From the NCBI GenBank assembly GCA_000004985.1, contig GG738900.1: a stretch of 64,000 bases of DNA; one strand, written 5' to 3'. Numbering within the stretch: position 1 is the first letter of the stretch; each line of letters starts with the position of its first letter. The stretch comes from Naegleria gruberi. Lineage: Eukaryota. Shown in pieces: positions 8,757 through 43,789 of the stretch. The translations under genes were made by a program, and so were the position numbers. The notes beneath the pieces are model-generated. The model was not told where the DNA came from. It did not search any database and saw only the letters and a list, made by a program, of their open reading frames with translations.

Positions 8757-9474
8757 TGGGTGATGTTTTTTCTTATTAGGAGGTTGATTAAGGATTGTTG
8801 TCCACTCATATTTGAAAAGATGATAAACTCAAAGCGCTTCCATCACACAATACATAAAGAATGTTCTTGCTGATAGTGAGGCACTTTTTTGCTGCTGCTT
8901 TTTAAAGCTGTTATTCTTGACTTGTATGGATGTTGATGTTGGTTCAACAATGTCTCTTGGGCTATTAATATGTTCAATAGTAATATTACTTCTTCTTGAT
9001 GATTCTCCTCTTCTAATAGGGAATGCAATGGGAGAATAAGGCTCTGACCTTCAGCGGAATGCTTTTTCAAAGAAGTAATAAGAGACTCACAGAGAGTGTT
9101 TTAATAAATGTGCTCCTTCTTCTAAGAGTTTGTGTCTCAATGAAATGGACCTCTCCTCTTTTTTTATTTAGATAAAATCGAATGCACACAACAGTGGAGA
9201 TAAATAAGCTACAACAGTTGAGTGGTGCTTATAATAACGAACCACAATGCAATGGAATGCAGCTGCTTTTATGTTCGCCTATTGAGAACTACATGTAAAT
9301 TGGGTTGAGTATTTTTAAATGGACAATTTAGAGGTATATTATTGGGATGAACTGTTTACTATTTAAGAGGTCTTTAACACTTTTATTGTAATAACTATTA
9401 AATACATAAATATATTTATTTCCAAATTTTCATTGTAAAAAACAAAAATCTTCTTCAAAACACAAGAAAAAAAA

Positions 9475-10878: not shown

Positions 10879-11037
10879 ATATTCATTAACTCAAATCCAG
10901 TTGGTCCATTTTACCAAGACCACAACACGTTTAGAAATTTCATGTTGTAGAAGTTTACCCAATTTGGAAAATATACGAAACTGGTGCTAATCTTTTACTG
11001 GTGAATCAATTAGCATAATCAATCATCACTAGAAAAA

Positions 11038-14037: not shown

Positions 14038-14042
14038 TAAAT

Positions 14043-28300: not shown

Positions 28301-31300
28301 TTCGCTTGTATCAATGTTGATTGTTGATGAATCGACAATACCTTTGTTCTTTGAATTGATTGTCAAGTTGGTTCTTGTAAGTGAAGGATCACTGGAGGTA
28401 TATGTTTGAATAGTAACTGTTTGACCTTGGATAACATATGTCTTTGGTTCAACATCCACAATATTAACAATAGGAGGTACGTTTACAAAGTAAACTACTG
28501 TTGTTGCAGAAATAGATCTTCCATCAGACTTTTCAATTGTCAAAGTAAGAGTAATATAGGATGGAACAGTTTCATTAAATATCTTGGATTCAATTGTAAA
28601 CTCAGTAGATCTATCTTTAGAAATATTGAAAAGGAATTCCAATAATGTTTGGTTACTATTTTCCAAACAAGTCCAAGTCCATTGTTCAGTAATACCTGTG
28701 TGGTATGTTGATTCAGGGTCAGAGTATTCAACATCAATTATAGTATAATTCTTTCTAGCTTCTCTTTGAATAATAGATAAAACCATATCTATTGGTTTTG
28801 TTATTAATGTTACGATACTTGTTGTGTTCAATTGAGGATAGGATGGATAGAAGGCTGTAACTAAGAAAGTATATGTTTGATAGCCAAAGGTGGAAATAGA
28901 AGGAATGTAAAGATTTCCAAAGGTATCGACTTGATAATCTATTATCGGTCCTGTAAGTTGTTCCCATTTAACAGCAGATTTTTGTGATTTACAAGATGAT
29001 TCTGATACAGTCTTCTTAAAATAGACAGGGAATTGAGAGGCATCCTTTTCTTGGTGAGTGATTGGAACATAAATTGATGGAATTGGCTTTGATGCCTTAG
29101 TAAATACATTAGAATAAACAATAGAACTATTCTTTCTAGCAAATGTACTCTCAACTTGGAGAGAAACTAGGTATGAACCAGGTAAAAGACTAGAATTTTG
29201 CAATTTGATGAAAGGGCTGTTTGCAAAATTGGAATAAAAAACTTGATAGGTTGTAGAATCAAGTAAATTCCAATAATAATGCAGTGATTTTCCATCCTCT
29301 GAGTGACTCATAGATCCATCAATAGTAATATCATCACATGAACTGTAAAATTCATCCAAAGTAGAAATAACAGCAGTTGGCCAAATATTGGAAGGCATGG
29401 CAACATCTATTTGAACATAATAATTTTGTTGAGTAACGTGATTGATTCTATCAATAACAAGAGTGTTGATATTGATTGTATCAATTTCTGGTTGCAAGGT
29501 ATAATCCATAGAACCAAAGCTAATAATGAACAAATTGTTGGTTCTATCAATAAATTGACATTTAAGGTTTGATAGTGTACCAAACAAGTTTCTATTAATA
29601 TCAGTCTCACTCAATAGATAACTGCAAGGTATATCAATCTTTGTGTATGAGTCAGGAACATAGAGATTAAAGATGAGTCCTCTAAAATCTGAGGAGAAAA
29701 CAGCAGGTCCTACAACCTTTGTAGCACACAACTCACCATAATAATCTTGGTCACACTTGTTACATGTAAATCCTGTCCAAAATCCTTGGGAGTAATCTGT
29801 GTAACATTCACATGCACCACTGATTAAACATTCACCATGATTAGTACAATTGATTTCCTTTTTACAAGTACCATACATTATCATAATTTCACAATTAGTA
29901 CCATTATAACCAGTCTTACAATTACAAGTGTCAATATCTACACACTTTCCTTTTCCTGAGCAAACAGATTTTACGTTTCTTGAAACACCGAAACAATCAT
30001 ATTCTTGACATGTTGAGCCGTAATAAGTATCAACACAAGAACAATTATTATAATCTATACATTGACCTCTTCTGGAGCATACACTATTATTGTTTGATCT
30101 GACATTTCCACATGTAGTCAAGGCACAATCATTACCAAAGTAGTGTGGTCTACATGAACAATTATTATAGCTTGCACACACTCCTCTTCCTGAGCAAACA
30201 GATGGGTCAGTGTTGTTACCTTCTAAACAAGTATAGAATTCACAGTTAACTCCATAGTATCCAGTATCACATGTGCAGTTAGAATACTCAGAACATTTAC
30301 CTCTTCCAGAACAAACAGAGTTGTTAAGGTGTTCCACGTTGTTACAAGTGTAGAATTCACATGTAGGGCCATAATAACCTTCATCACAAGAGCAGTTATT
30401 AAAATCAATACATTGTCCTCTTGACGAGCAAACTGTTGTTTCGTTGGATTGTACATTACCGCAACTAGTTAATTGACAGTCAACACCCCAATAATTGGTG
30501 AAGCAGGTACAATTATTATAACTGGAGCATTCACCTCTTGCGGAGCAGGAGTTTGATTCAGTGTGATTGACATAATTGCAGGTGAAGAATTGACAATCAT
30601 TTCCAAAGTAACCTTCATCACATTCACATTTTTCATAGCTTGTACATTTACCATGCGTTGAACAAACAGATGAATTCAAATGTTCAATTCCATTACAATC
30701 ATAGAACTCACAGACAGGTCCATAAAAATCACTCTTACATTCGCATATATTGAAATCTGAGCAATTACCTCTCGATGTACAAACAGTGGAATCATTGGAT
30801 TGAACAGAACCACATGTGGTCAATTCACATGTATCACCAAAGTAGTTATCTCTGCATGAACAATTGTTGAAAGAGGAACATTCACCTCTTGATGAACAAA
30901 CTGTTGTTTCCGTGTGGTTAACACCATTACAAGTAAAGTATTGACAATCATTTCCAAAGTAACCTTCTTTGCATATACATACTTCAGGAATTGTACATTT
31001 ACCATACGTTGAACAAACAGATGAATTCAAATGTTCAATTCCATTACAATCATAGAACTCACAGACAGGTCCATAAAAATCACTCTTACATTCGCATATA
31101 TTGAAATCTGAACAATTACCTCTCGATGTACAAACTTTAGAATTATTAGATTGAACAGAACCACATGTGGTCAATTCACAAGTAGATCCAAAATAGTTAT
31201 CTCTGCATGAACAATTGTTATAGCTTGAACATTCACCTCTTGAAGAGCAAACTGTTGATTCAGTGTGATTGACACTATTGCAGGTGAAGAATTGACAATC

Positions 31301-34300
31301 ATTTCCAAAGTAACCTTCATCACATTCACATTTTTCATAGCTTGTACATTTACCGTGCGTTGAACAAACAGATGAATTCAAATGTTCAATTCCATTACAA
31401 TTAAAGTATTCACAATTATCACCATAATATCCTTCATCGCATGCACAAGAATCAAAATCTGCACATTGTCCCTTTCCAGAGCATACATTGGTATCGTTGG
31501 AAAGAACTCCATGGCAAGAGGTTACATCACATGCAAGGTCCATATAATTTTCTCTACATTTACAATCACCAAAGTTTGTACAATTACCTCTACCTGAACA
31601 TACAAGAGGTTCTCCCTCAGTAATATTGAAGCAGCTATAATGTTCGCAAATATCACCAAAGTAGCCATATTTACAAACGCAAGTGTTGTAATCAATACAC
31701 TTTCCTTTTCCAGAACATACATAAGGGTTATTTGAGTTGACAGTACCACATGTTGTCAATTCACATGTATCACCAAAGTAGTTGTCTCTGCATGAACAAT
31801 TGTTGAAGGAGGAACATTCACCTCTTGATGAACAAACGGATGAATTGGTACTGTTAATGCCACCACAAGTGAAGAATTGGCATTCACCTCCAAAGTACCC
31901 ATTTTCGCAATCACAAACATCATAATCTACACAAATACCCTTGCTATAACAAACGCTTGAGTTTGTGTTAAGAACACCAAAACATTGTACCAATTCACAC
32001 TCAGTGCCAAAATAGTTAATCGATGAGCAATTGCAAGTATTGAAATCTGAACAATTACCTCTCGATGTACAAACCTTAGAATTATTAGATTGAATAGAAC
32101 CACATGTGGTCAATTCACATGTATCACCAAAGTAGTTATCTCTGCATGAACAATTGTTGAAAGAGGAACATTCACCTCTTGATGAACAAACTGTTGTTTC
32201 CGTGTGGTTAACACCATTACAAGTAAAGTATTGACAATCATTTCCATTATAATGTTCTTCGCATTGGCATCTGTCAAATGAAGCACATTTACCAAAACCA
32301 GAACAAACTGATGATGTGTTAGAGGACACTCCATTACATGTTGTAACTTCACATGTTGAACCGTAGTAGTTTGTATCACAATCACAATCATTTACATCAA
32401 CACAAGAACCATGACCACTACAAACGCTGGAATCATTACTCAAAATACCATCACAAATGGTAACTTCGCACATTGGACCAAACATATTGGCCATACAAAC
32501 ACATGTATTTCCATCAATACAATCACCACGACCAGAGCATGTTGAATTGGAGAATTTTGAAACACCGAAACAATTGAAATTTTCGCATTCACTTCCGTAG
32601 TAACCAGCAGAACAATTACAAATATTGTAATCCATACAGGAACCCTTTGAAGAACAAACCTTAGAATCATTAGATTGAATTGAACCACATGTGGTCAATT
32701 CACAATCGTTACCAAAGTAGTTGTCTCTACAAGTGCAATTGTTGTAGCTTGAACATTCACCTCTTGAAGAGCAAACTGTTGATTCAGTGTGATTGACACT
32801 ATTGCAGGTGAAGAATTGACAATTATTTCCAAAGTAACCTTCATCACATTCACATTTTTCATAGCTTGTACAATGACCTCTTGAGGAACAAACAGATGAA
32901 TTCAAATGTTCAATTCCATTACAATTAAAGTATTCACAATTATCACCATAATATCCTTCATCGCATGCACAAGAATCAAAATCTGCACATTGTCCCTTTC
33001 CAGAGCATACATTGGTATCGTTGGAAAGAATTGAATTACAACTAGTTAATTCGCATTCGTCTCCCAAATAATTAAGGAAACATGAACAATTATTGGTTGA
33101 CATGCATGAACCACGTGAATGACAAGCTGTCAAATTGACGTTTAAAATTTCAAAACATTTGAATTCAGAACAATCAGAACCAAATGAATTTTCAAAACAT
33201 TGACAGGAATTAAATTGAGCACAAACACCCTTTCCTGAACATGTCAAATCTGTTTGATTGGACGGAATTCCAAAACACGAAGTAACTTGACAGAATTGAC
33301 CATAATTATTTTCAGTACAATTGCAGTGATCTGTTTCAATGCATTGACCACGACCAGAACAAACAATTGATTCGTTGCTCAACGCTCCATTACATTTGTA
33401 CAATGAACAATCAGGACCATAAGCGTCTGGATCACAAATACAAGTATTCATATCAGAACATTGTCCTCTACCTGAACAAACTAATTGTGATTGATTTGAG
33501 GCAATTGAATAACAATTTGTCACTTGACAATAATCACCATAATAACCCTCTCTACATGAACATTGGTTTGGTGATAAACATTCACCTCTTCCAGAACAAA
33601 CCATTGTTTCATTACTTAAAACAGCATTACAAATAGTAACAGAACAGTTCAATCCAAAGTAATTTGAAGCACATTTACATTCATCTGTACGTGAGCAAAG
33701 ACCATGTCCAGAGCAAACTTTAGATTCTGTGTTATTCAAACCAAAACATGTATGATATTGACAATTATCTCCATAGTATCCTTCTGAACAATTACATTGA
33801 TTGTAATCAGAACAAAGACCTCTTCCAGAACAAACACTCTTATTAGCCATATCGACTCCATAACATGATGTTCTCTCACAGAATTTACCATAATATCCTT
33901 CTGTACAATTACAAGAATCTGTTCCAATACAGTGTCCCCTTGAACTACAAACAATATTGGTAAAATTACTAAATGTGCCATTACATTTAGATATGGAACA
34001 ATCATCACCATACGCATCTGAAAGACAAACACACGTATCGATATCTGAACAATTACCTCTTCCCGAACAAACAGCTTTTTCGGTATTCATTGTTCCACGA
34101 CATGAAAAGACAGAACAAATACTTCCAGAATAACCCAAATTACAAGTACAATTATTGTAAGTTGCACAGAACCCGTGACGGGAGCAAACTTGGTGACTAG
34201 TAGAGGAAACTCCGCCACAAGTTGTATTTTCACAATTTGATCCAAAATATCCTGTATCACAACTACAATGATCAGCTCCAGTACAAGAACCATGAGAACT

Positions 34301-37300
34301 ACAAACTGTAGAATTTACAGCTGGAATGCCGTTACAAATTGGAATTTCACAGTTTGAGCCTTCATATCCCAAGGTTTCATCACAATTACAAATGTCCAAA
34401 TGTGTACAGAAACCACGACCAGAACAAACACTAGGAATATTAGTTGGTACCCCAAAGCAACTGGTGATTTCACAGAAATCACCAGAGTAAGTGTTTGGAC
34501 AAACACAAATATCAAGATCAATGCAAGTACCTACACCATTACAGACCTCTGTAGAATTGGAAGAAATAGAATCACAGGATGTAAATTCACAACGTGGTCC
34601 ATAATAACCATCAAGACAAGAACAAACATCAAATCTGGAACAAGATCCTCTTCCTGAACACACCGTAGAATGGTTTGTTGCTTCAATACCAAAGCAAGTT
34701 GTAAGTTCACACCAAGGTCCATAATAGTTTTGAGTACAGTTGCAAGTATCTAGGCCGACACATTTACCATGACCACTGCAAGATTTGGTTTCATTACTAT
34801 AAATATCATTACATGATGTAACTTCACAATTGATTCCATAGAATTCAGGTTGACATACACATGTATCATAATTAACACATGAACCCTTGCCTGAACAAGT
34901 TTCGTTTGATAATCTAGAGATACCAAAACATTCAAAATCTTGGCAAGTATGTCCATAATAACCTTCTAAACATGAACACTTGTCAAAAGCAGTACAATTA
35001 CCCTTCTCTCCACAAACGGAAGAGTTGGTGGATTCAACACCATAACATGTTGTTATTTCACACCATTTACCATAATAACCATCAGCACAAGAACAATTGT
35101 TTGGTGAAATACAATCTCCTCTTCCTGCACCAGAACATAAACCAACTAATCCATTACATATTGGAATTTCACAATCTGGACCACCATATCCAAGAGTTAA
35201 ATTACAAGTACAGTTATTGTAGAATTCACAAACACCACGTTTGTTACAAGCAAGAGGTGAAGTATTGTTAATACCATTACAAGTTGTGAATTGACACATT
35301 TGTCCATAATAACCAAAATCACATACACACTTGTCTCTTCCAGCACAGTTACCATGTCCACTGCATACATATGTTTCATTACCATAAACACCATAACAAA
35401 TGGAGACAGAGCAGTCATCGCCATAGGAATCTTCCTTACAAATACATTTGTTGTAGTCAATACATTGACCTTTTCCTGCACATGTGAGATTAGAGTGATG
35501 ATCAATTAAATAGCATGAGAAAATATCCAAGCATTCAGAATTTACATAAGGCTCCTTTGGATCACAAGTGATTGGAGCATCAAATGAAGCTTCTTGGAGA
35601 GTAACTTGACCCAATTCCTCAGAATGAACCCAAACTGCACCGTGTATCTTACCTGCAACCCAAAATTCTTGACCATACTTTGCAATAACAGTTCCATGAA
35701 CATGATTGACAAAGACATTTCCGTGAAGTGTTGTACTTAAGATCCAATCAGAAACGGTATTGCCAAAGTAATAAGTAGACCAGAATACATTTCTATATGA
35801 GGCACATTTTTCATATTTGAATTCTGCACCATAATAATGGATATATGGTGCTCTGAACACTACAGGTTCAGTTCCGACAATTACAAACTTGTGACCTTCA
35901 ATTAGCCAACTGTCCCTCAAACAATAGACACCCCCAAATTCAACAATGATGAGTTTTCCTAAAGAATCTGGATTATTAATGATGAAATCACATGGGAGTG
36001 TATTCAATTCATCAACTCTTTTTCCAACCTCATCAACTAGATTTTTGCCAAATTCATCATATGTGTATGTAATTCCATAACTTCCATTTCCAACATAAGG
36101 ATAGACTGGATCAGGGAATAGGAAGGTTGGAGGAGTAATAACCTGAGAAGGAATAGCAATACTTGCTGTCAAGACAGAATTAGCTAGAGAGTTTTTAGCA
36201 AGCAAAGCAGGTTTGTTACTGATCATCTTGTAGCAAGCAAAAATATCACTTTCACATTCAGCACCAGCATAACCACCACGCAAGAACAATNNNNNNNNNN
36301 NNNNNNNNNNNNNNNNNNNNNNNNNNNNNNNNNNNNNNNNNNNNNNNNNNNNNNNNNNNNNNNNNNNNNNNNNNNNNNNNNNNNNNNNNNNNNNNNNNNN
36401 NNNNNNNNNNNNNNNNNNNNNNNNNNNNNNNNNNNNNNNNNNNNNNNNNNNNNNNNNNNNNNNNNNNNNNNNNNNNNNNNNNNNNNNNNNNNNNNNNNNN
36501 NNNNNNNNNNNNNNNNNNNNNNNNNNNNNNNNNNNNNNNNNNNNNNNNNNNNNNNNNNNNNNNNNNNNNNNNNNNNNNNNNNNNNNNNNNNNNNNNNNNN
36601 NNNNNNNNNNNNNNNNNNNNNNNNNNNNNNNNNNNNNNNNNNNNNNNNNNNNNNNNNNNNNNNNNNNNNNNNNNNNNNNNNNNNNNNNNNNNNNNNNNNN
36701 NNNNNNNNNNNNNNNNNNNNNNNNNNNNNNNNNNNNNNNNNNNNNNNNNNNNNNNNNNNNNNNNNNNNNNNNNNNNNNNNNNNNNNNNNNNNNNNNNNNN
36801 NNNNNNNNNNNNNNNNNNNNNNNNNNNNNNNNNNNNNNNNNNNNNNNNNNNNNNNNNNNNNNNNNNNNNNNNNNNNNNNNNNNNNNNNNNNNNNNNNNNN
36901 NNNNNNNNNNNNNNNNNNNNNNNNNNNNNNNNNNNNNNNNNNNNNNNNNNNNNNNNNNNNNNNNNNNNNNNNNNNNNNNNNNNNNNNNNNNNNNNNNNNN
37001 NNNNNNNNNNNNNNNNNNNNNNNNNNNNNNNNNNNNNNNNNNNNNNNNNNNNNNNNNNNNNNNNNNNNNNNNNNNNNNNNNNNNNNNNNNNNNNNNNNNN
37101 NNNNNNNNNNNNNNNNNNNNNNNNNNNNNNNNNNNNNNNNNNNNNNNNNNNNNNNNNNNNNNNNNNNNNNNNNNNNNNNNNNNNNNNNNNNNNNNNNNNN
37201 NNNNNNNNNNNNNNNNNNNNNNNNNNNNNNNNNNNNNNNNNNNNNNNNNNNNNNNNNNNNNNNNNNNNNNNNNNNNNNNNNNNNNNNNNNNNNNNNNNNN

Positions 37301-40300
37301 NNNNNNNNNNNNNNNNNNNNNNNNNNNNNNNNNNNNNNNNNNNNNNNNNNNNNNNNNNNNNNNNNNNNNNNNNNNNNNNNNNNNNNNNNNNNNNNNNNNN
37401 NNNNNNNNNNNNNNNNNNNNNNNNNNNNNNNNNNNNNNNNNNNNNNNNNNNNNNNNNNNNNNNNNNNNNNNNNNNNNNNNNNNNNNNNNNNNNNNNNNNN
37501 NNNNNNNNNNNNNNNNNNNNNNNNNNNNNNNNNNNNNNNNNNNNNNNNNNNNNNNNNNNNNNNNNNNNNNNNNNNNNNNNNNNNNNNNNNNNNNNNNNNN
37601 NNNNNNNNNNNNNNNNNNNNNNNNNNNNNNNNNNNNNNNNNNNNNNNNNNNNNNNNNNNNNNNNNNNNNNNNNNNNNNNNNNNNNNNNNNNNNNNNNNNN
37701 NNNNNNNNNNNNNNNNNNNNNNNNNNNNNNNNNNNNNNNNNNNNNNNNNNNNNNNNNNNNNNNNNNNNNNNNNNNNNNNNNNNNNNNNNNNNNNNNNNNN
37801 NNNNNNNNNNNNNNNNNNNNNNNNNNNNNNNNNNNNNNNNNNNNNNNNNNNNNNNNNNNNNNNNNNNNNNNNNNNNNNNNNNNNNNNNNNNNNNNNNNNN
37901 NNNNNNNNNNNNNNNNNNNNNNNNNNNNNNNNNNNNNNNNNNNNNNNNNNNNNNNNNNNNNNNNNNNNNNNNNNNNNNNNNNNNNNNNNNNNNNNNNNNN
38001 NNNNNNNNNNNNNNNNNNNNNNNNNNNNNNNNNNNNNNNNNNNNNNNNNNNNNNNNNNNNNNNNNNNNNNNNNNNNNNNNNNNNNNNNNNNNNNNNNNNN
38101 NNNNNNNNNNNNNNNNNNNNNNNNNNNNNNNNNNNNNNNNNNNNNNNNNNNNNNNNNNNNNNNNNNNNNNNNNNNNNNNNNNNNNNNNNNNNNNNNNNNN
38201 NNNNNNNNNNNNNNNNNNNNNNNNNNNNNNNNNNNNNNNNNNNNNNNNNNNNNNNNNNNNNNNNNNNNNNNNNNNNNNNNNNNNNNNNNNNNNNNNNNNN
38301 NNNNNNNNNNNNNNNNNNNNNNNNNNNNNNNNNNNNNNNNNNNNNNNNNNNNNNNNNNNNNNNNNNNNNNNNNNNNNNNNNNNNNNNNNNNNNNNNNNNN
38401 NNNNNNNNNNNNNNNNNNNNNNNNNNNNNNNNNNNNNNNNNNNNNNNNNNNNNNNNNNNNNNNNNNNNNNNNNNNNNNNNNNNNNNNNNNNNNNNNNNNN
38501 NNNNNNNNNNNNNNNNNNNNNNNNNNNNNNNNNNNNNNNNNNNNNNNNNNNNNNNNNNNNNNNNNNNNNNNNNNNNNNNNNNNNNNNNNNNNNNNNNNNN
38601 NNNNNNNNNNNNNNNNNNNNNNNNNNNNNNNNNNNNNNNNNNNNNNNNNNNNNNNNNNNNNNNNNNNNNNNNNNNNNNNNNNNNNNNNNNNNNNNNNNNN
38701 NNNNNNNNNNNNNNNNNNNNNNNNNNNNNNNNNNNNNNNNNNNNNNNNNNNNNNNNNNNNNNNNNNNNNNNNNNNNNNNNNNNNNNNNNNNNNNNNNNNN
38801 NNNNNNNNNNNNNNNNNNNNNNNNNNNNNNNNNNNNNNNNNNNNNNNNNNNNNNNNNNNNNNNNNNNNNNNNNNNNNNNNNNNNNNNNNNNNNNNNNNNN
38901 NNNNNNNNNNNNNNNNNNNNNNNNNNNNNNNNNNNNNNNNNNNNNNNNNNNNNNNNNNNNNNNNNNNNNNNNNNNNNNNNNNNNNNNNNNNNNNNNNNNN
39001 NNNNNNNNNNNNNNNNNNNNNNNNNNNNNNNNNNNNNNNNNNNNNNNNNNNNNNNNNNNNNNNNNNNNNNNNNNNNNNNNNNNNNNNNNNNNNNNNNNNN
39101 NNNNNNNNNNNNNNNNNNNNNNNNNNNNNNNNNNNNNNNNNNNNNNNNNNNNNNNNNNNNNNNNNNNNNNNNNNNNNNNNNNNNNNNNNNNNNNNNNNNN
39201 NNNNNNNNNNNNNNNNNNNNNNNNNNNNNNNNNNNNNNNNNNNNNNNNNNNNNNNNNNNNNNNNNNNNNNNNNNNNNNNNNNNNNNNNNNNNNNNNNNNN
39301 NNNNNNNNNNNNNNNNNNNNNNNNNNNNNNNNNNNNNNNNNNNNNNNNNNNNNNNNNNNNNNNNNNNNNNNNNNNNNNNNNNNNNNNNNNNNNNNNNNNN
39401 NNNNNNNNNNNNNNNNNNNNNNNNNNNNNNNNNNNNNNNNNNNNNNNNNNNNNNNNNNNNNNNNNNNNNNNNNNNNNNNNNNNNNNNNNNNNNNNNNNNN
39501 NNNNNNNNNNNNNNNNNNNNNNNNNNNNNNNNNNNNNNNNNNNNNNNNNNNNNNNNNNNNNNNNNNNNNNNNNNNNNNNNNNNNNNNNNNNNNNNNNNNN
39601 NNNNNNNNNNNNNNNNNNNNNNNNNNNNNNNNNNNNNNNNNNNNNNNNNNNNNNNNNNNNNNNNNNNNNNNNNNNNNNNNNNNNNNNNNNNNNNNNNNNN
39701 NNNNNNNNNNNNNNNNNNNNNNNNNNNNNNNNNNNNNNNNNNNNNNNNNNNNNNNNNNNNNNNNNNNNNNNNNNNNNNNNNNNNNNNNNNNNNNNNNNNN
39801 NNNNNNNNNNNNNNNNNNNNNNNNNNNNNNNNNNNNNNNNNNNNNNNNNNNNNNNNNNNNNNNNNNNNNNNNNNNNNNNNNNNNNNNNNNNNNNNNNNNN
39901 NNNNNNNNNNNNNNNNNNNNNNNNNNNNNNNNNNNNNNNNNNNNNNNNNNNNNNNNNNNNNNNNNNNNNNNNNNNNNNNNNNNNNNNNNNNNNNNNNNNN
40001 NNNNNNNNNNNNNNNNNNNNNNNNNNNNNNNNNNNNNNNNNNNNNNNNNNNNNNNNNNNNNNNNNNNNNNNNNNNNNNNNNNNNNNNNNNNNNNNNNNNN
40101 NNNNNNNNNNNNNNNNNNNNNNNNNNNNNNNNNNNNNNNNNNNNNNNNNNNNNNNNNNNNNNNNNNNNNNNNNNNNNNNNNNNNNNNNNNNNNNNNNNNN
40201 NNNNNNNNNNNNNNNNNNNNNNNNNNNNNNNNNNNNNNNNNNNNNNNNNNNNNNNNNNNNNNNNNNNNNNNNNNNNNNNNNNNNNNNNNNNNNNNNNNNN

Positions 40301-43300
40301 NNNNNNNNNNNNNNNNNNNNNNNNNNNNNNNNNNNNNNNNNNNNNNNNNNNNNNNNNNNNNNNNNNNNNNNNNNNNNNNNNNNNNNNNNNNNNNNNNNNN
40401 NNNNNNNNNNNNNNNNNNNNNNNNNNNNNNNNNNNNNNNNNNNNNNNNNNNNNNNNNNNNNNNNNNNNNNNNNNNNNNNNNNNNNNNNNNNNNNNNNNNN
40501 NNNNNNNNNNNNNNNNNNNNNNNNNNNNNNNNNNNNNNNNNNNNNNNNNNNNNNNNNNNNNNNNNNNNNNNNNNNNNNNNNNNNNNNNNNNNNNNNNNNN
40601 NNNNNNNNNNNNNNNNNNNNNNNNNNNNNNNNNNNNNNNNNNNNNNNNNNNNNNNNNNNNNNNNNNNNNNNNNNNNNNNNNNNNNNNNNNNNNNNNNNNN
40701 NNNNNNNNNNNNNNNNNNNNNNNNNNNNNNNNNNNNNNNNNNNNNNNNNNNNNNNNNNNNNNNNNNNNNNNNNNNNNNNNNNNNNNNNNNNNNNNNNNNN
40801 NNNNNNNNNNNNNNNNNNNNNNNNNNNNNNNNNNNNNNNNNNNNNNNNNNNNNNNNNNNNNNNNNNNNNNNNNNNNNNNNNNNNNNNNNNNNNNNNNNNN
40901 NNNNNNNNNNNNNNNNNNNNNNNNNNNNNNNNNNNNNNNNNNNNNNNNNNNNNNNNNNNNNNNNNNNNNNNNNNNNNNNNNNNNNNNNNNNNNNNNNNNN
41001 NNNNNNNNNNNNNNNNNNNNNNNNNNNNNNNNNNNNNNNNNNNNNNNNNNNNNNNNNNNNNNNNNNNNNNNNNNNNNNNNNNNNNNNNNNNNNNNNNNNN
41101 NNNNNNNNNNNNNNNNNNNNNNNNNNNNNNNNNNNNNNNNNNNNNNNNNNNNNNNNNNNNNNNNNNNNNNNNNNNNNNNNNNNNNNNNNNNNNNNNNNNN
41201 NNNNNNNNNNNNNNNNNNNNNNNNNNNNNNNNNNNCACCATAATAGTTTTCGGTACAATTACAAAGATCTGGACGGTAACAAATACCACGTCTATCCTTA
41301 GTACATACGCCAGTAAGTCCATTACAGATTGGAATTTCACAGTTAAAGCCTCCATATCCAAATGTACTATTACATGTGCAGTTATTATAAAAATCACAAG
41401 AACCACGTCCACTACAGACATCTGGAGAGTTGTATTCAATATCGGCGCAAGTTGTCCATTCACACCAAGTTCCATTATAATTAGGATAACAGCTACATGT
41501 ATCCTTTGCAATACAAGCGCCATGACCATTGCTACAAACTGATGATTCAGTACCTAGAGTACCGTTACACATGGCAATAGAACAATCTTGGCCGTATTGA
41601 TCTGGTAAACACAAGCAAGTATTGTTACCTATACAGTAACCATTATTTGAGCATCCATCTTCAACAATTGATTTGGAATTGAAACAGAATGTAAGTAAAC
41701 ATTGCTCATTAATGTATGGTTCGTATCCGTTGAATGTGATTGGAGGAGTGAATGTTACATCGAATAATAGCATCTGTGTACCACCCATAAACCATAAAGC
41801 GCCCTGAATAGTATCATAAATTTCAATTTGATGGTATGGAGCCATTCCTACCACTGTACCGTGAACATTTCCAGAGAAAAAATTACCATTTCTACCATAG
41901 TCCCAAGTCAACCAAAAGACATTTCTATAGGAGGCACATAACAGATAGTAAAAAACGGCATTATAATAATTGACGTATGGAGCCTTAAAAACAACAGGCT
42001 CAAGACCATGGATAATAAAAATATGATCCTTAATTGTGATACCATTAGGGAAACAATACACACCACCATGCTTGATAACAGTAATATTCTGTAATTCATC
42101 TTGACTATTAATGGTATGTGTACAATCCATGTACAATAATTCCATGGATTTCTTTTCCATTTCTTGAATAATCAACTCTGTCATCGGATCATTTTGAGGT
42201 TTTGAAATGACAACATCATTTCCACTTGGTTCGTACATGACTGGAGTTGTTGGTGAGTAGGCATGAGAAACCTGAATGTCAGGTAAGGCGAAACTTGCCT
42301 GTAATTCCTTTTTAGAGTTTCTGGCAATCATAATAGGTTTGGAACTGATAAGTTTGTAGCCAGCAAATATATCTACAGCACAAGCCTCACCAATGAAACC
42401 AGTTTGGCAAGTACAATTGTTGTATGAAATACAAGTACCGTGTCCAGAACAAACTAAAGGAGAATTAGAATCATCACTGAAACATTGTGTCAATTCACAA
42501 TTAGAGCCAAAATAATTATCTACACAAGAGCAAGAGTCAGGAGCAGTACAGTTACCTAGTGAGGTACAAACAGAAGCATTAGAGAAATGCACACCAGAAC
42601 AATTCCAATGTTGGCACTTATCACCATAATATCCATACAGACAATTACAGTTATCAGAACCAATACAGTCACCGTTACCAGAGCAAACAGTTGAATCGTT
42701 TGATCCTATACCATAACACCAATGAACGGTGAAAATCTCTTCATCACAATTGTTACCAGAGTATCCATCAGTGCACAAGCATTTGTCTAAGGCTGTGCAA
42801 TTTCCTTGGCCATTACATACCAGTGAGGAGTTTGACAATACACCAAAGCATTGAGTAACTTGGCAATCATTTCCAAAATAATTGGAACTACATTGACAAT
42901 TATTTAAATCTACACAAGCGCCATTACCAGAGCAAACAGTTGAATCGTTTGATCCTATACCATAACACCAATGAACGGTGAAAATCTCTTCATCACAATT
43001 GTTACCAGAGTATCCATCAGTGCACGAGCATTTATCTAAGGCTGTGCAATTTCCTTGGCCATTACATACCAGTGAGGAGTTTGACAATACACCAAAGCAT
43101 TGGGTAACTTGGCAATCATTTCCAAAATAATTGGAACTACATTGGCAATTATTTAAATCTACACAAGCGCCATTACCAGAGCAAACAGTTGAATCGTTTG
43201 ATCCTATACCATAACACCAATGAACGGTGAAAATCTCTTCATCACAATTGTTACCAGAGTATCCATCAGTGCACAAGCATTTGTCTAAGGCTGTGCAATT

Positions 43301-43789
43301 TCCTTGGCTACTACATACCAGTGAGGAGTTTGACAATACACCAAAGCATTGAGTAACTTGGCAATCATCTCCAAAATAATTGGAACTACATTGACAATTA
43401 TTTAAATCTACACAAGCGCCATTACCAGAGCAAACTCTAGAGTCATTACTTAGAAGTTCATTACATTCAAAAACAGAACATAAAGGACCATAATAACCAC
43501 TATCACACAAACAATTATCTGGTGATTGGCAACCATGTCCTGACAATATTAACGGATTGATTTGTGGATATTCCAAGCATTCTATATATTCACAATTGTT
43601 GCCTGAATATCCTGTAAGGCAACTACAAGTCTCATCAGCTATACAAGTTCCGTTACCTGAGCAAACCAATAGATCGGTTGAATCCAACGAATTACAGGTA
43701 AAGGCTTGTACACACTTAGTTGAAAAAACTACTAAGAGCGTTACTAACACAACACACTTAATAAATAATGAGGTGTTGATTCCGCTCAT
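22310..43789 (-). CDS. Giant type-I transmembrane protein of at least 7,159 codons including the gap. Reading 5' to 3': a signal peptide; more than 100 tenascin/laminin-type EGF-like modules in several arrays; two copies of an uncharacterised ~250-aa Cys-poor module; a large S/T-rich extracellular stalk; one TM helix; a poly-Cys juxtamembrane patch; and a roughly 1,500-aa acidic repetitive cytoplasmic tail. The CDS is interrupted by assembly gap 36291..41235.
   Basis: The N-terminus MSGINTSLFIKCVVLVTLLVVFSTKCVQA is a signal peptide. The EGF unit is recurrent: 6-8 Cys per ~31-aa unit, such as CSGNGACVDLNNCQCSSNYFGNDCQVTQC. Module copy 1 spans about 41630-42380 and copy 2 about 35500-36290; both contain ...EPVVF[KR]APY[VI][NH]YY...CASYRNVFW...HGTV.... 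The TM and poly-Cys sequence is YVAALGAAAVIICGFSLTCLISCIILCRNRRRFAGFCCCCCCVH, at about 26560-26690. The tail carries repeated EEVDEGEDVYVVVESE-type motifs. The single ORF is in frame on both sides of the N run. Confidence 0.8.
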   Translation of the reverse strand: MSGINTSLFIKCVVLVTLLVVFSTKCVQAFTCNSLDSTDLLVCSGNGTCIADETCSCLTGYSGNNCEYIECLEYPQINPLILSGHGCQSPDNCLCDSGYYGPLCSVFECNELLSNDSRVCSGNGACVDLNNCQCSSNYFGDDCQVTQCFGVLSNSSLVCSSQGNCTALDKCLCTDGYSGNNCDEEIFTVHWCYGIGSNDSTVCSGNGACVDLNNCQCSSNYFGNDCQVTQCFGVLSNSSLVCNGQGNCTALDKCSCTDGYSGNNCDEEIFTVHWCYGIGSNDSTVCSGNGACVDLNNCQCSSNYFGNDCQVTQCFGVLSNSSLVCNGQGNCTALDKCLCTDGYSGNNCDEEIFTVHWCYGIGSNDSTVCSGNGDCIGSDNCNCLYGYYGDKCQHWNCSGVHFSNASVCTSLGNCTAPDSCSCVDNYFGSNCELTQCFSDDSNSPLVCSGHGTCISYNNCTCQTGFIGEACAVDIFAGYKLISSKPIMIARNSKKELQASFALPDIQVSHAYSPTTPVMYEPSGNDVVISKPQNDPMTELIIQEMEKKSMELLYMDCTHTINSQDELQNITVIKHGGVYCFPNGITIKDHIFIIHGLEPVVFKAPYVNYYNAVFYYLLCASYRNVFWLTWDYGRNGNFFSGNVHGTVVGMAPYHQIEIYDTIQGALWFMGGTQMLLFDVTFTPPITFNGYEPYINEQCLLTFCFNSKSIVEDGCSNNGYCIGNNTCLCLPDQYGQDCSIAMCNGTLGTESSVCSNGHGACIAKDTCSCYPNYNGTWCEWTTCADIEYNSPDVCSGRGSCDFYNNCTCNSTFGYGGFNCEIPICNGLTGVCTKDRRGICYRPDLCNCTENYYGXXXXXXXXXXXXXXXXXXXXXXXXXXXXXXXXXXXXXXXXXXXXXXXXXXXXXXXXXXXXXXXXXXXXXXXXXXXXXXXXXXXXXXXXXXXXXXXXXXXXXXXXXXXXXXXXXXXXXXXXXXXXXXXXXXXXXXXXXXXXXXXXXXXXXXXXXXXXXXXXXXXXXXXXXXXXXXXXXXXXXXXXXXXXXXXXXXXXXXXXXXXXXXXXXXXXXXXXXXXXXXXXXXXXXXXXXXXXXXXXXXXXXXXXXXXXXXXXXXXXXXXXXXXXXXXXXXXXXXXXXXXXXXXXXXXXXXXXXXXXXXXXXXXXXXXXXXXXXXXXXXXXXXXXXXXXXXXXXXXXXXXXXXXXXXXXXXXXXXXXXXXXXXXXXXXXXXXXXXXXXXXXXXXXXXXXXXXXXXXXXXXXXXXXXXXXXXXXXXXXXXXXXXXXXXXXXXXXXXXXXXXXXXXXXXXXXXXXXXXXXXXXXXXXXXXXXXXXXXXXXXXXXXXXXXXXXXXXXXXXXXXXXXXXXXXXXXXXXXXXXXXXXXXXXXXXXXXXXXXXXXXXXXXXXXXXXXXXXXXXXXXXXXXXXXXXXXXXXXXXXXXXXXXXXXXXXXXXXXXXXXXXXXXXXXXXXXXXXXXXXXXXXXXXXXXXXXXXXXXXXXXXXXXXXXXXXXXXXXXXXXXXXXXXXXXXXXXXXXXXXXXXXXXXXXXXXXXXXXXXXXXXXXXXXXXXXXXXXXXXXXXXXXXXXXXXXXXXXXXXXXXXXXXXXXXXXXXXXXXXXXXXXXXXXXXXXXXXXXXXXXXXXXXXXXXXXXXXXXXXXXXXXXXXXXXXXXXXXXXXXXXXXXXXXXXXXXXXXXXXXXXXXXXXXXXXXXXXXXXXXXXXXXXXXXXXXXXXXXXXXXXXXXXXXXXXXXXXXXXXXXXXXXXXXXXXXXXXXXXXXXXXXXXXXXXXXXXXXXXXXXXXXXXXXXXXXXXXXXXXXXXXXXXXXXXXXXXXXXXXXXXXXXXXXXXXXXXXXXXXXXXXXXXXXXXXXXXXXXXXXXXXXXXXXXXXXXXXXXXXXXXXXXXXXXXXXXXXXXXXXXXXXXXXXXXXXXXXXXXXXXXXXXXXXXXXXXXXXXXXXXXXXXXXXXXXXXXXXXXXXXXXXXXXXXXXXXXXXXXXXXXXXXXXXXXXXXXXXXXXXXXXXXXXXXXXXXXXXXXXXXXXXXXXXXXXXXXXXXXXXXXXXXXXXXXXXXXXXXXXXXXXXXXXXXXXXXXXXXXXXXXXXXXXXXXXXXXXXXXXXXXXXXXXXXXXXXXXXXXXXXXXXXXXXXXXXXXXXXXXXXXXXXXXXXXXXXXXXXXXXXXXXXXXXXXXXXXXXXXXXXXXXXXXXXXXXXXXXXXXXXXXXXXXXXXXXXXXXXXXXXXXXXXXXXXXXXXXXXXXXXXXXXXXXXXXXXXXXXXXXXXXXXXXXXXXXXXXXXXXXXXXXXXXXXXXXXXXXXXXXXXXXXXXXXXXXXXXXXXXXXXXXXXXXXXXXXXXXXXXXXXXXXXXXXXXXXXXXXXXXXXXXXXXXXXXXXXXXXXXXXXXXXXXXXXXXXXXXXXXXXXXXXXXXXXXXXXXXXXXXXXXXXXXXXXXXXXXXXXXXXXXXXXXXXXXXXXXXXXXXXXXXXXXXXXXXXXXXXXXXXXXXXXXXLFLRGGYAGAECESDIFACYKMISNKPALLAKNSLANSVLTASIAIPSQVITPPTFLFPDPVYPYVGNGSYGITYTYDEFGKNLVDEVGKRVDELNTLPCDFIINNPDSLGKLIIVEFGGVYCLRDSWLIEGHKFVIVGTEPVVFRAPYIHYYGAEFKYEKCASYRNVFWSTYYFGNTVSDWILSTTLHGNVFVNHVHGTVIAKYGQEFWVAGKIHGAVWVHSEELGQVTLQEASFDAPITCDPKEPYVNSECLDIFSCYLIDHHSNLTCAGKGQCIDYNKCICKEDSYGDDCSVSICYGVYGNETYVCSGHGNCAGRDKCVCDFGYYGQMCQFTTCNGINNTSPLACNKRGVCEFYNNCTCNLTLGYGGPDCEIPICNGLVGLCSGAGRGDCISPNNCSCADGYYGKWCEITTCYGVESTNSSVCGEKGNCTAFDKCSCLEGYYGHTCQDFECFGISRLSNETCSGKGSCVNYDTCVCQPEFYGINCEVTSCNDIYSNETKSCSGHGKCVGLDTCNCTQNYYGPWCELTTCFGIEATNHSTVCSGRGSCSRFDVCSCLDGYYGPRCEFTSCDSISSNSTEVCNGVGTCIDLDICVCPNTYSGDFCEITSCFGVPTNIPSVCSGRGFCTHLDICNCDETLGYEGSNCEIPICNGIPAVNSTVCSSHGSCTGADHCSCDTGYFGSNCENTTCGGVSSTSHQVCSRHGFCATYNNCTCNLGYSGSICSVFSCRGTMNTEKAVCSGRGNCSDIDTCVCLSDAYGDDCSISKCNGTFSNFTNIVCSSRGHCIGTDSCNCTEGYYGKFCERTSCYGVDMANKSVCSGRGLCSDYNQCNCSEGYYGDNCQYHTCFGLNNTESKVCSGHGLCSRTDECKCASNYFGLNCSVTICNAVLSNETMVCSGRGECLSPNQCSCREGYYGDYCQVTNCYSIASNQSQLVCSGRGQCSDMNTCICDPDAYGPDCSLYKCNGALSNESIVCSGRGQCIETDHCNCTENNYGQFCQVTSCFGIPSNQTDLTCSGKGVCAQFNSCQCFENSFGSDCSEFKCFEILNVNLTACHSRGSCMSTNNCSCFLNYLGDECELTSCNSILSNDTNVCSGKGQCADFDSCACDEGYYGDNCEYFNCNGIEHLNSSVCSSRGHCTSYEKCECDEGYFGNNCQFFTCNSVNHTESTVCSSRGECSSYNNCTCRDNYFGNDCELTTCGSIQSNDSKVCSSKGSCMDYNICNCSAGYYGSECENFNCFGVSKFSNSTCSGRGDCIDGNTCVCMANMFGPMCEVTICDGILSNDSSVCSGHGSCVDVNDCDCDTNYYGSTCEVTTCNGVSSNTSSVCSGFGKCASFDRCQCEEHYNGNDCQYFTCNGVNHTETTVCSSRGECSSFNNCSCRDNYFGDTCELTTCGSIQSNNSKVCTSRGNCSDFNTCNCSSINYFGTECELVQCFGVLNTNSSVCYSKGICVDYDVCDCENGYFGGECQFFTCGGINSTNSSVCSSRGECSSFNNCSCRDNYFGDTCELTTCGTVNSNNPYVCSGKGKCIDYNTCVCKYGYFGDICEHYSCFNITEGEPLVCSGRGNCTNFGDCKCRENYMDLACDVTSCHGVLSNDTNVCSGKGQCADFDSCACDEGYYGDNCEYFNCNGIEHLNSSVCSTHGKCTSYEKCECDEGYFGNDCQFFTCNSVNHTESTVCSSRGECSSYNNCSCRDNYFGSTCELTTCGSVQSNNSKVCTSRGNCSDFNICECKSDFYGPVCEFYDCNGIEHLNSSVCSTYGKCTIPEVCICKEGYFGNDCQYFTCNGVNHTETTVCSSRGECSSFNNCSCRDNYFGDTCELTTCGSVQSNDSTVCTSRGNCSDFNICECKSDFYGPVCEFYDCNGIEHLNSSVCSTHGKCTSYEKCECDEGYFGNDCQFFTCNYVNHTESNSCSARGECSSYNNCTCFTNYWGVDCQLTSCGNVQSNETTVCSSRGQCIDFNNCSCDEGYYGPTCEFYTCNNVEHLNNSVCSGRGKCSEYSNCTCDTGYYGVNCEFYTCLEGNNTDPSVCSGRGVCASYNNCSCRPHYFGNDCALTTCGNVRSNNNSVCSRRGQCIDYNNCSCVDTYYGSTCQEYDCFGVSRNVKSVCSGKGKCVDIDTCNCKTGYNGTNCEIMIMYGTCKKEINCTNHGECLISGACECYTDYSQGFWTGFTCNKCDQDYYGELCATKVVGPAVFSSDFRGLIFNLYVPDSYTKIDIPCSYLLSETDINRNLFGTLSNLKCQFIDRTNNLFIISFGSMDYTLQPEIDTININTLVIDRINHVTQQNYYVQIDVAMPSNIWPTAVISTLDEFYSSCDDITIDGSMSHSEDGKSLHYYWNLLDSTTYQVFYSNFANSPFIKLQNSSLLPGSYLVSLQVESTFARKNSSIVYSNVFTKASKPIPSIYVPITHQEKDASQFPVYFKKTVSESSCKSQKSAVKWEQLTGPIIDYQVDTFGNLYIPSISTFGYQTYTFLVTAFYPSYPQLNTTSIVTLITKPIDMVLSIIQREARKNYTIIDVEYSDPESTYHTGITEQWTWTCLENSNQTLLEFLFNISKDRSTEFTIESKIFNETVPSYITLTLTIEKSDGRSISATTVVYFVNVPPIVNIVDVEPKTYVIQGQTVTIQTYTSSDPSLTRTNLTINSKNKGIVDSSTINIDTSEFEEGTNNTVVITAYDPNTGASTSTTYTFEVATSPKPCLCTINPPEGIAQQTDFQFYCTNCKDDANHIDYVYGFIDDRSGAKLPLYSLGEVYSSKLPAPFTGSILTCYFEVINTLTGASTTTYTNITIDKPFVQQVEEVQTTIIAWADAGQSYILEGEYSKSIYQSSSSSRTGSVMLEETISDTIQHSSSSSSLECINGVDIAGSCKCKDEWIGQYCDIEVKDFNNIQLSKIHALDDMNNIANATGTVSVEYLSLLSFAVDSMLLNYPYLTSVTVDRSLYTLNTFLTFSLSDPSLKLTSGMNIMLDGCIRSAYYYVVDKQYLIDQKVNSRRLLLTLKMTSYLMARGMSAGRLKKGYQGPFFHVVIGKSTLNDYPTYVQEPITQTSIDVLSGFFEFEVSKLSYLVKKPFIYVLCVSEDIYSLNSQLKQSKKITSASSFSNANTLANLISPIVSVEFIDVATPINENDIIYTIPLNFSKVETEIIHDVLDFTTVSETYTCGDFEDGSSLIRTECSLVAPISRNDTFAKCRCKQFTNVFVLQTSTVIYYSYTYVAALGAAAVIICGFSLTCLISCIILCRNRRRFAGFCCCCCCVHKEEVVVGGSTESDISYDEEEEMKIQQIAIKTQAAEEYNEETEVEMEVMNKQGLKVEEPFVAYRPLKKTGRSMRKVQIVPGDAKLVQQTTGGKNKVLPLLGGTLVDLNENQYEETEEKEEKEVNVKNSNGSIWDLKDDEETFEEKKNKMTMQSINPYAKQNYTEETEVQPNVVQSFTPRLSKKSNIIQGERDVSMQHSVTEDEDESLVEETDDLRRSSNSVKLVKEGLVNEFAYANGRVKDEHEEESSVELVDEKDFVQRGTKPKPAKLSSLNPFSMGSTEDECEEMEESSIFRKTEQNEEKTMDDLLFNKPIKVSSQILKDKNTEEKEVVNHRAPEFAPTQVKIPRTSTETKSQTMRGDVFSETNQTEEKEVVNHSRAPEFAQTKSPRVLQSNKAQTIRGDLFGEKSVTTVDENANLITGSDVSSKPIGKVPEKKHISSANTETLKGELYANSKEEKEVVNHSRALEVAQPKSPRVLPSNKSQTMRGDVFSETKQTEEKEVVNHSKTPEFVQPRVLQSNKAQTLRGELFSEKEKKQVVETTPEEVKPSKPRSYVAPKSQTVQGQVYIDEEEEEEKSLQNVVLNNKSAPRVTSNQSSSRPQSHGSPRLPTRRTRVQSASKETRDVELNSTTSSRPSSVNSQTVRGQVYTEEEKIVKASPLNVVQEEENKKMLQSLYGDMFAANKFEESVVNKKFTSEETRPQVSNKSAASEEVDEDVYIVAESEQAKKYAPPVQEDIMQNKPIKVSSKYIGDSSENSVVNRSKPPLSFDEEPTQPAVRSSPLSHRESIMATATESKDEGEDVFVVVESEEKKMKPVSKPKESKQKIPTSNLSGMQAQSMQQNVTNSVEEDEGEDVFVVVESEEKSKKRSNKKSKNGKSSTKSSQEKSVVNRSKPPVSLDEEQVHQSNSTSGSRKLQKSSNQQSSELNMAAQKTSTQQSGASEEVDEGEDVYIVVESQEASSKRKPEKSKSSKSSKTLPNSSSNNESSFEENTVVNRSKPPMSFEEEKNEDMMLQTLSSGMFERNVGSVVNKKEEVDEGEDVYVVVESEAKEKRKKSSAWQALKDMKKNKMSMRDAANALITKEGRSSDYTQEDQLSTYQSTNSMISSRSAASINMTSNMVAQKTSTQQSGASEEVDEGEDVYIVVESQEASSKRKPEKSKSTRFSSQEKTVVNSSKSIEASESGKMVSQSSSQQVVSSSNGQQVAQEDDEAEDVYVVVEETGVEKKRMPFGWQALKGMKSKTSMREAVKGAFGSKQSSSTITTTENSNSSAVSGQTVITSSQQAISSSNIVTKQTSSSTVTNHSSSSSSTVVTGSTQHVVSSNISTQQVAQDDDEAEDVYVVVEEVQNTRAAIPRLDTKKSFFTRNKKTDPEQNNETEGNDLQSVGELQSIKSSFFGKPSFLKRK
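22480..25620. repeat. Imperfect tandem repeats encoding the cytoplasmic tail of the giant gene. There are about 8 copies of a 150-370-bp unit encoding ...EEVDEGEDVYVVVESE..., and about 6 copies of a unit encoding QT[IML][RK]G[DEQ][VL][FY]...EEKEVVNHSRAPEF.
   Basis: The DNA motif tcaacaacaa(c/t)ataaacatcttc(t/c)(g/c)cttcatca recurs at about 22490, 22870, 23095, 23390, 23670, 23945, 24110 and 24370; the 23090 and 23660 copies are identical over 80 nt or more. The protein-level repeats are visible in the 7,159-aa translation. Confidence 0.75.
30665..32430. repeat. Intragenic segmental duplication of EGF-module coding blocks, about 1.29 kb apart.
   Basis: Near-identical stretches of at least 180 nt occur at about 30820-31005 and 32110-32295, where the ORF track shows identical 61-aa reverse-frame ORFs. 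Further duplicated protein blocks occur downstream (VTSCHGVLSNDTNVCSGKGQCADFDSCACDEGYYGDNCEYFNCNGIEHLNSSVCS... twice, FTCNGVNHTETTVCSSRGECSSFNNCSCRDNYFGDTCELTTCG... three times). Confidence 0.7.
36291..41235. other. Assembly gap (4,945 N) inside the giant EGF-repeat gene.
   Basis: An unbroken run of n. The flanking sequence is highly repetitive EGF-module coding DNA, so the gap likely reflects repeat collapse. The ORF-track X-runs through the gap are artefacts. Confidence 0.99.
42680..43430. repeat. Three tandem, near-identical 249-bp repeats, each encoding an 83-aa double-EGF unit, inside the giant gene.
   Basis: The motif accagagcaaacagttgaatcgtttgatcctatacc recurs at 42678, 42926 and 43175, a period of 249 bp. 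The protein unit EEIFTVHWCYGIGSNDSTVCSGNGACVDLNNCQCSSNYFGNDCQVTQCFGVLSNSSLVCNGQGNCTALDKC[SL]CTDGYSGNNCD is repeated three times with one or two substitutions. Confidence 0.9.

Follow-up and report, generated by a model that had tools for sequence, protein, structure and literature searches.

We analyzed a 64,000-nucleotide (nt) stretch of Naegleria gruberi DNA (contig GG738900.1 of assembly GCA_000004985.1), referred to here as the window, in which a single giant gene carries three almost identical, in-frame copies of a 249-bp unit. The gene is one open reading frame (ORF) on the minus strand, from 22310 to 43789 in the ORF list and its translation, with at least 7,159 codons, 1,649 of them read as X from a run of N. 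Its product would be a type I membrane protein encoded by a single-exon surface-receptor gene, with arrays of EGF modules and copies of a domain that we call domain X. We consider it likely that the 249-bp units arose by recent in-frame tandem expansion, that patchy conversion has reworked a longer EGF array in the same gene, and that the number of modules can change as a result. An original prediction made from the letters of the window had pointed to these repeats, and most of what it claimed about them held up.

Tandem Repeats Finder reported the array at positions 42675 to 43435 with a period of 249, 3.1 copies, 97% matches, and 0 indels. By length, the array amounts to 3.06 in-frame copies of the unit, with the minus strand coding. 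Each unit specifies 83 amino acids (aa), made up of one 39-aa and one 44-aa EGF module of the tenascin type, and the three units together provide 6 of the 11 EGF modules in the N-terminal part of the protein. The array is composed as follows.

43187 to 43435, minus strand: unit U1, aa 119 to 201, with 3 private changes, all nonsynonymous.
42938 to 43186, minus strand: unit U2, aa 202 to 284, with 4 private changes, 3 of them synonymous.
42689 to 42937, minus strand: unit U3, aa 285 to 367, with 0 private changes, equal to the consensus.
42675 to 42688, minus strand: the 14-nt stretch GTTTGCTCTGGTAA (coding orientation) after U3, from the junction sequences.

Aligned by codon, the units differ at 7 (U1/U2), 3 (U1/U3), and 4 (U2/U3) positions per 249 nt, or 97.2 to 98.8% identity. 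The predicted set of three near-identical 249-bp units was thus recovered both by this alignment and by Tandem Repeats Finder, and the predicted start points (42678, 42926, and 43175) placed the array correctly, although their spacing departs from the period of 249 by a trivial slip of 1 nt. Outside the array, identity was 36 to 49% in the adjoining 249 bp on either side. As a background, 40 modules of the same length (117 bp) gave 780 pairs with a median nucleotide identity of 53% and a 95th percentile of 66%, so the near-identity of the three units is far beyond chance. The units stand head to tail, exceed 10 nt, have a length that is a multiple of three (83 codons), and leave the ORF intact, as is the case in coding minisatellites. 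The 14-nt stretch opens every 249-bp unit and the first module after the array; it occurs four times in the 21-kb gene, every time at an array junction. At the 3' edge of the array, it could be a microhomology or what is left of a fourth copy.

The units also appear to be young. Nei-Gojobori estimates of synonymous divergence (dS) between them were 0.06, 0, and 0.06, and U1 and U3 had no synonymous difference, whereas ordinary modules differed at a median proportion of 0.67 of their synonymous sites. Because synonymous sites are nearly unchanged, selection at the protein level cannot explain the identity of the units. For a comparison with strain divergence, we used a contig of 5,210 bp (L001 1-5210) from the ENA metagenome ERZ929261, an assembly of run ERR1078381 (PRJEB11402), which was 99.19% identical to positions 9212 to 14422 of the window; therefore, a very close N. 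gruberi strain was sequenced in that run. The two genes on this contig had uncorrected synonymous differences of 0.027 and 0.007 from the window. Since the values are similar (0 to 0.06 between units and 0.007 to 0.027 between strains), the units seem to have split on approximately the timescale of strains within the N. gruberi lineage. The private changes (3 in U1, 4 in U2, and 0 in U3) are distributed in a star-like way, as copies produced within a short time would show, and because they differ by unit, there is no sign that one unit is a copy-paste artifact of another. The low dS, together with the clustering of mismatches in the duplicated blocks described below, supports the claim that unequal crossing-over or gene conversion acted recently. 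We take the comparisons to support the view that the units are alike because of recent non-allelic recombination, whether by unequal exchange, by slippage, or by gene conversion, and not because of constraint.

Slippage or unequal exchange typically acts on segments bounded by a short direct repeat. The ancestral state may have been a single 249-bp segment flanked by the 14-nt direct repeat. Replication slippage or unequal exchange between two copies of this motif, spaced at exactly 249 bp, would have produced the first duplication. With 249 bp of perfect homology then available, further unequal exchange, between sister chromatids or between alleles, could have given three copies. Non-allelic homologous recombination of the same class is at work in the array of 48 EGF modules elsewhere in the gene, where perfect tracts of 105 to 151 bp have been pasted between modules that lie 351 to 1,524 bp from each other. 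The recombination machinery is plausible in N. gruberi because heterozygosity, recombination, and a meiotic gene set have been reported for this organism (PMC9928731).

The long array and its perfect tracts are located as follows.

29846 to 35482, minus strand: 48 EGF modules of about 117 bp each, from the module alignment.
30806 to 30956, minus strand: perfect 151-nt tract covering parts of three modules, identical to 32096-32246 (offset 1290).
31362 to 31506, minus strand: perfect 145-nt tract in which module 35 equals module 22, identical to 32886-33030 (offset 1524).
30656 to 30760, minus strand: perfect 105-nt tract in which module 41 matches module 38, identical to 31007-31111 (offset 351).

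Recent homogenization in this array was limited to modules 21 to 46 (30080 to 33124); modules 1 to 20 (33125 to 35482) were at the background identity of about 50%, without recent homogenization. The 1.29-kb pair named in the original prediction (30820-31005 and 32110-32295) was 89.2% identical at an offset of 1290 and contained the perfect run of 151 nt. The strongest long pair, which had been missed, was 31128-31549 versus 32652-33073, with 89% identity and the perfect run of 145 nt. The 130-aa blocks placed between 31700 and 34000 are repeats, but not of that length: the spacing is 117 to 118 aa (3 modules, 351 to 354 bp) or 195 to 196 aa (5 modules), at 70 to 80% nucleotide identity. The high-identity pairs in modules 21 to 46 belong to three module types, which recur every 3 or 5 modules. 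Tandem Repeats Finder also reported a looser 351-bp array at 30509 to 31401.

Within the duplicated blocks, divergence was distributed very unevenly. At the offset of 1524, modules 21 to 24 compared with modules 34 to 37 had 49, 0, 9, and 17 mismatches and dS of 0.84, 0, 0.13, and 0.62, respectively; at the offset of 351, modules 38 to 40 compared with modules 41 to 43 had 1, 27, and 39 mismatches. When the same number of mismatches was placed at random and the run length was compared with that observed, the clustering of mismatches had a permutation P of 1e-5 to 3e-4 for the runs of 105 to 151 nt. The identity tracts, which connect nonadjacent modules, have sharp edges and begin and finish inside modules, not at module borders. 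Overlong tracts of identity and heterogeneous dS along one block, the pattern of concerted evolution, are thus both found here. The heterogeneous dS and the clustering of mismatches led us to reject a single kilobase-scale segmental duplication behind the 1.29-kb and 1.52-kb pairs, so the kilobase-scale segmental duplications that had been claimed are real as duplicated tracts but not as a single segmental event. An old three-module super-repeat, overwritten patchwise by gene conversion or by hybrid-forming unequal exchanges, would explain the long array.

We then compared the giant gene with its relatives. The protein NAEGRDRAFT_51207 (P0131; 4,968 aa), encoded on another N. gruberi scaffold, has five copies of domain X and is collinear with the giant gene at 38 to 48% identity. 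The only contig in ERZ929261 related to the gene family (L002) encodes a second relative, P0010, which is a 45% identical homologue and not an allele. Before the first domain X, these two proteins carry 3 to 4 modules, compared with 11 in the giant gene, and the N-terminal array is therefore a lineage-specific expansion. Module pairs with at least 90% amino acid identity numbered 12 in the giant gene, and only 2 of 121 related EGF-array proteins had any, with a maximum of 73% in P0131; recent homogenization is thus a trait of the giant gene and not of the family, in a comparison where short-read assemblies tend to lose near-identical repeats. The P0010 frame (L002 565-2229) is 554 aa long, with a signal peptide, about 4 EGF modules, a domain X, and 3 EGF modules, and it stops abruptly at nt ~2116 to 2229, beside an ORF on the opposite strand. 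A chimeric contig, an intron, or a truncated paralogue may account for this abrupt end.

The three units could also be an old array kept alike by continuing gene conversion, that is, by concerted evolution, in which case the copy number could be stable. Patchy conversion is demonstrably active elsewhere in the giant gene, and the private changes of U1 and U2 indicate that homogenization, if any, has been incomplete. However, identity in the units is uniform across the 249 bp and ends at sharp common edges, unlike in the patchy long array, and neither P0131 nor P0010 has the extra modules, though both are too distant to date the event. On balance, we regard long-term conversion as an unlikely origin of the array. 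Still less credible is that an old identity was held by purifying selection on the protein or the mRNA. EGF modules do have conserved cysteines and glycines, but modules outside the units also have this cysteine framework and are only ~53% identical in nucleotides, and between the units, synonymous sites are as conserved as nonsynonymous ones (dS of 0 to 0.06, with none differing between U1 and U3). With dS near zero between units, identity maintained by selection was rejected, and we give it almost no weight.

An artifact of assembly would take the form of haplotypes laid in tandem, of a longer array collapsed, or of a shorter one expanded, in what is presumably a 2010 Sanger whole-genome shotgun assembly. 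Haplotype stacking normally yields two copies at a contig edge, whereas this array has 3.06 copies in phase and in frame, with 0 indels and unit-specific substitutions, and lies away from contig ends, with the nearest N at 1,439 bp. That said, the divergence of the units (1 to 3%) is not far from that between alleles or strains, the gene also contains an unfilled gap of 4.9 kb at a distance of 1.4 kb from the array, and the N. gruberi genome has been reported to be heterozygous (PMC9928731). We therefore judge an artifact to be quite improbable but keep it in mind. Recent tandem expansion with patchy conversion remains our preferred explanation, and several points weigh against it: the count of three copies rests on a single assembly of one strain; the 3 to 7 differences per unit pair are small counts, which makes the dating crude; a recent duplication looks the same as an older array in which ongoing conversion maintains uniformity; and any functional consequence of the array is pure inference. 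If recent expansion is correct, the number of EGF modules would probably change over the time in which strains diverge, which would lengthen or shorten the EGF stalk that bears the ice-binding-like domains described below. An effect of module number on adhesion specificity, as raised in the original prediction, would be speculation.

The remainder of the gene places these arrays in a large predicted surface protein. The window comes from N. gruberi strain NEG-M, and the proteins NAEGRDRAFT_81313, NAEGRDRAFT_72834, NAEGRDRAFT_81314, NAEGRDRAFT_52467, and NAEGRDRAFT_52473, all on a 312,004-bp N. gruberi scaffold, are exact matches to five ORFs neighboring the giant gene. From the N terminus, the ORF encodes a signal sequence, 11 EGF modules, a first domain X (X1), and at least 3 EGF modules before the run of N; after the run, a second domain X (X2), the 48 EGF modules, a REJ domain, a GPS-like motif, one transmembrane segment, and a tail of ~1,420 aa follow. 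A predicted signal peptide, an ectodomain with EGF and REJ domains, and a single transmembrane segment are what a cell-surface protein would have. The parts of the gene outside the two arrays are as follows.

43703 to 43789, minus strand: predicted signal peptide, aa 1 to 29, an N-terminal hydrophobic segment (hydropathy alone).
41690 to 42382, minus strand: domain X1, aa 470 to 700 (~230 aa), with a predicted DUF3494/IBP-1 beta-helix fold.
41237 to 41689, minus strand: EGF modules after X1, open into the gap, collinear with the modules after X2.
36291 to 41235: run of 4,945 N (by count), a scaffold gap inside the ORF.
35480 to 36262, minus strand: domain X2, aa 2510 to 2770, a second ice-binding-like domain, by similarity to X1.
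27896 to 28906, minus strand: REJ domain, aa ~4962 to 5298 (Pfam PF02010, 58.7 bits against a cut-off of 25, E 5.2e-16).
26690 to 26818, minus strand: GPS-like four-cysteine motif ending in CRCKQFTNVF, by alignment with canonical Naegleria GPS motifs.
26576 to 26656, minus strand: single predicted transmembrane segment, aa 5712 to 5738 (hydropathy).
22313 to 26575, minus strand: predicted cytoplasmic tail of ~1,420 aa, rich in Ser, Glu, and Lys, with repeats of its own (hydropathy and repeats).

The EGF modules are of the tenascin/teneurin type. In the array after the gap, the Pfam models EGF_TEN, EGF_Teneurin, and EGF_2 scored 534, 351, and 500 bits, respectively, and in the N-terminal part, they scored 152, 157, and 154 bits, all above the gathering score.

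The two copies of domain X were 39 to 44% identical, depending on the alignment. X1 was closest to the first domain X of P0131 (53%) and X2 to the fifth (53%); because each is nearer to its counterpart in P0131 than to the other, the layout with several X domains predates the split of the giant gene and P0131. Pfam returned no match for X1 or X2 at E<=10, PF11999 included, and no PF11999 match in the five X copies of P0131; another relative, P0132, had a sub-threshold match to Ice_binding (18.1 bits against a cut-off of 28.7, E 0.0023). A PDB sequence search with domain X gave only noise and no ice-binding protein, and a word-based homologue search with it found nothing. An AlphaFold2 model built from a 10-sequence alignment had a predicted local distance difference test score (pLDDT) of 75.8, above 90 in the core, and a predicted template modeling score (pTM) of 0.78, and it showed a right-handed beta-helix with a long alpha-helix packed alongside. 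Foldseek, run with the better model of domain X, returned 30 ice-binding proteins at a probability of 1.00, after which E exceeded 0.6.

Domain X is thus predicted to have the fold of DUF3494/IBP-1 ice-binding proteins. It is important to note that the similarity of fold in such a model neither shows nor implies binding of ice. Many DUF3494 proteins come from non-cold habitats, and a role of domain X in surface adhesion would be a guess. Among the papers searched, none mentioned both DUF3494 and Naegleria. In a set of 1.84 billion representative proteins, a domain X profile matched only 4, namely, P0131, two further N. gruberi proteins, and the metagenome protein P0010, so that 3 of the 4 were from N. 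gruberi.

The gap within the gene affects how its full length is to be read. The original prediction was right that a gap of 4.9 kb is present and that the true size of the gene is hidden by it; the run of N lies within the ORF. That the ORF continues in frame across the run has a one-in-three chance, which is meaningless if the gap length is an estimate. Two further ORFs listed on the minus strand, at 36223-41529 (1,768 aa) and 36258-41258 (1,666 aa), are artifacts of reading through the N. Because X1 and its following modules are collinear with X2 and its following modules (42% amino acid identity over 403 aa), the regions flanking the gap are parts of a single repetitive architecture. The gap interval of ~1,649 codons corresponds approximately to residues ~492 to 2660 of P0131, which hold three X domains and their EGF arrays. 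By this comparison, the gap probably hides up to three further ice-binding-like domains with EGF arrays, and a gap made of EGF modules alone would be unlikely. The proposal that repeats caused the gap fared less well: repeats inside it may have broken the assembly, but the best match of the flanks elsewhere in the window was 75% identical, with no copy above that level, and the paralogue implies X domains in the interval.

The membrane-proximal region resembles that of REJ/GPS receptors, with a GPS-like motif. In three N. gruberi paralogues, the motif C..F[DE][DE]G......C.........C.C.[QK][FL]TNVF stands directly before the membrane span. In the giant protein, it aligns with the C.C.HTT.F GPS of N. 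fowleri FDP41_006070 and N. lovaniensis C9374_004465, minus the His: Gln replaces the usual His of the cleavage site, and Pfam gave no match at E<=10. Because this His is absent, the motif may not self-cleave. The Pfam scan of the giant ORF found no PLAT domain, and one hydrophobic span was present besides the signal peptide; with one membrane span and no PLAT, the protein does not belong to the polycystin-1 family. The tail resembles the long array in miniature, with an 81-nt perfect repeat (23088-23168 = 23661-23741). The motif D(E/A)(G/A)EDV(Y/F)(V/I)VVE, an acidic cluster followed by a Y-x-x-hydrophobic motif, occurs seven times in the tail, and blocks that start with EEKEVVNHSR and with VVNRSKPP are each present several times.

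When the N-terminal 851 aa and the REJ part were used as queries, neither an orthologue nor a second strain was found, only paralogues at 39 to 45% identity; all matches listed were shorter than 1,500 aa, and long proteins may escape detection in such searches. JGI metagenome contigs gave no match to a 26-nt unit-specific pattern or to back-translated peptides of aa 1 to 500. None of the collections searched yielded a second copy of the locus. The N-terminal 851 aa, X1 and X2, the REJ part, and six guessed models of the region after the gap were absent from the protein collections. Other N. gruberi proteins are present in the same collections, and only three minus-strand models lie between EFC39405 and EFC39409. 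The giant gene may be unannotated or badly modeled in public annotation.

Repeats of this kind are known from other surface proteins. In the minisatellites of fungal adhesin genes (Saccharomyces cerevisiae FLO1 and FLO11, Candida ALS, and EPA1), slippage, unequal crossing-over, or conversion alters the number of units, and stalk length tunes adhesion or display (PMC3899988, PMC7199969). Like these genes, the giant gene encodes part of a surface-protein stalk in tandem, in-frame units of at least 100 nt whose nucleotide sequences are almost identical. In contrast to the Ser/Thr-rich linkers of the fungal proteins, its units are disulfide-rich, folded EGF modules, present in only three copies, in a heterolobosean host. 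Near-identical in-frame minisatellites in surface-protein genes are well documented, and the Naegleria array appears to fit that class. The EGF arrays of animal tenascins and teneurins share the module type and the head-to-tail arrangement and plausibly act as spacers as well, but the Naegleria protein lacks fibronectin-III, fibrinogen, YD, and NHL domains and has a longer first loop in its 39-aa modules. Introns usually interrupt the animal arrays, whose modules are not known to be near-identical in DNA.

In its membrane-proximal part, the giant protein is like the REJ/GPS receptors polycystin-1 and the sea urchin receptor for egg jelly, with REJ followed by a GPS-like cysteine motif adjoining the membrane, and like the Naegleria proteins FDP41_006070 and C9374_004465, with EGF arrays upstream of REJ and GPS. 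It differs from polycystin-1 in having one span instead of 11, no PLAT domain, and a GPS-like motif that lacks the His of the HL|T site and goes undetected by Pfam. Its paralogue P0131 shares the alternation of X domains with EGF arrays, a REJ-homologous region, a GPS-like motif, one transmembrane segment, and a tail. P0131 differs in having five X domains in an uninterrupted model, no near-identical modules, and an Asn/Ser/Thr-rich region before the REJ-homologous region; the Pfam REJ model had no match in P0131. A bacterial parallel is the giant surface protein MpIBP/MpAFP of Marinomonas primoryensis, which also combines a near-identical repeat array with an ice-binding module, ice-binding-like in the giant gene (PMC3492233). 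Unlike the giant gene, MpIBP/MpAFP has Ig-like extender repeats and a calcium-dependent beta-helix of a different fold from DUF3494.

We suggest only tentatively, and with some doubt, that these proteins are an apparently Naegleria-restricted receptor family with DUF3494-like heads, EGF stalks, and an anchor of REJ and a noncleaving GPS-like motif, in which gain and loss of EGF modules would tune reach or valency between strains. If true, this family would be to a protist what variable adhesins are to fungi and bacteria, and its combination of domains would be previously undescribed. For genome evolution, the repeats are a further example and not a principle. The reference assembly misrepresents the giant gene, with a 4.9-kb gap inside the ORF and the tested parts missing from protein collections. 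For the biology of N. gruberi, the 249-bp array is a specific, checkable site of likely strain-to-strain length variation in the largest surface receptor of the amoeba. The ice-binding-like domains are the most interesting part of the giant gene: predicted beta-helices of this type, combined with EGF stalks on a REJ/GPS-like anchor, make up a candidate receptor family for adhesion to substrate or prey that Pfam-based annotation does not see.

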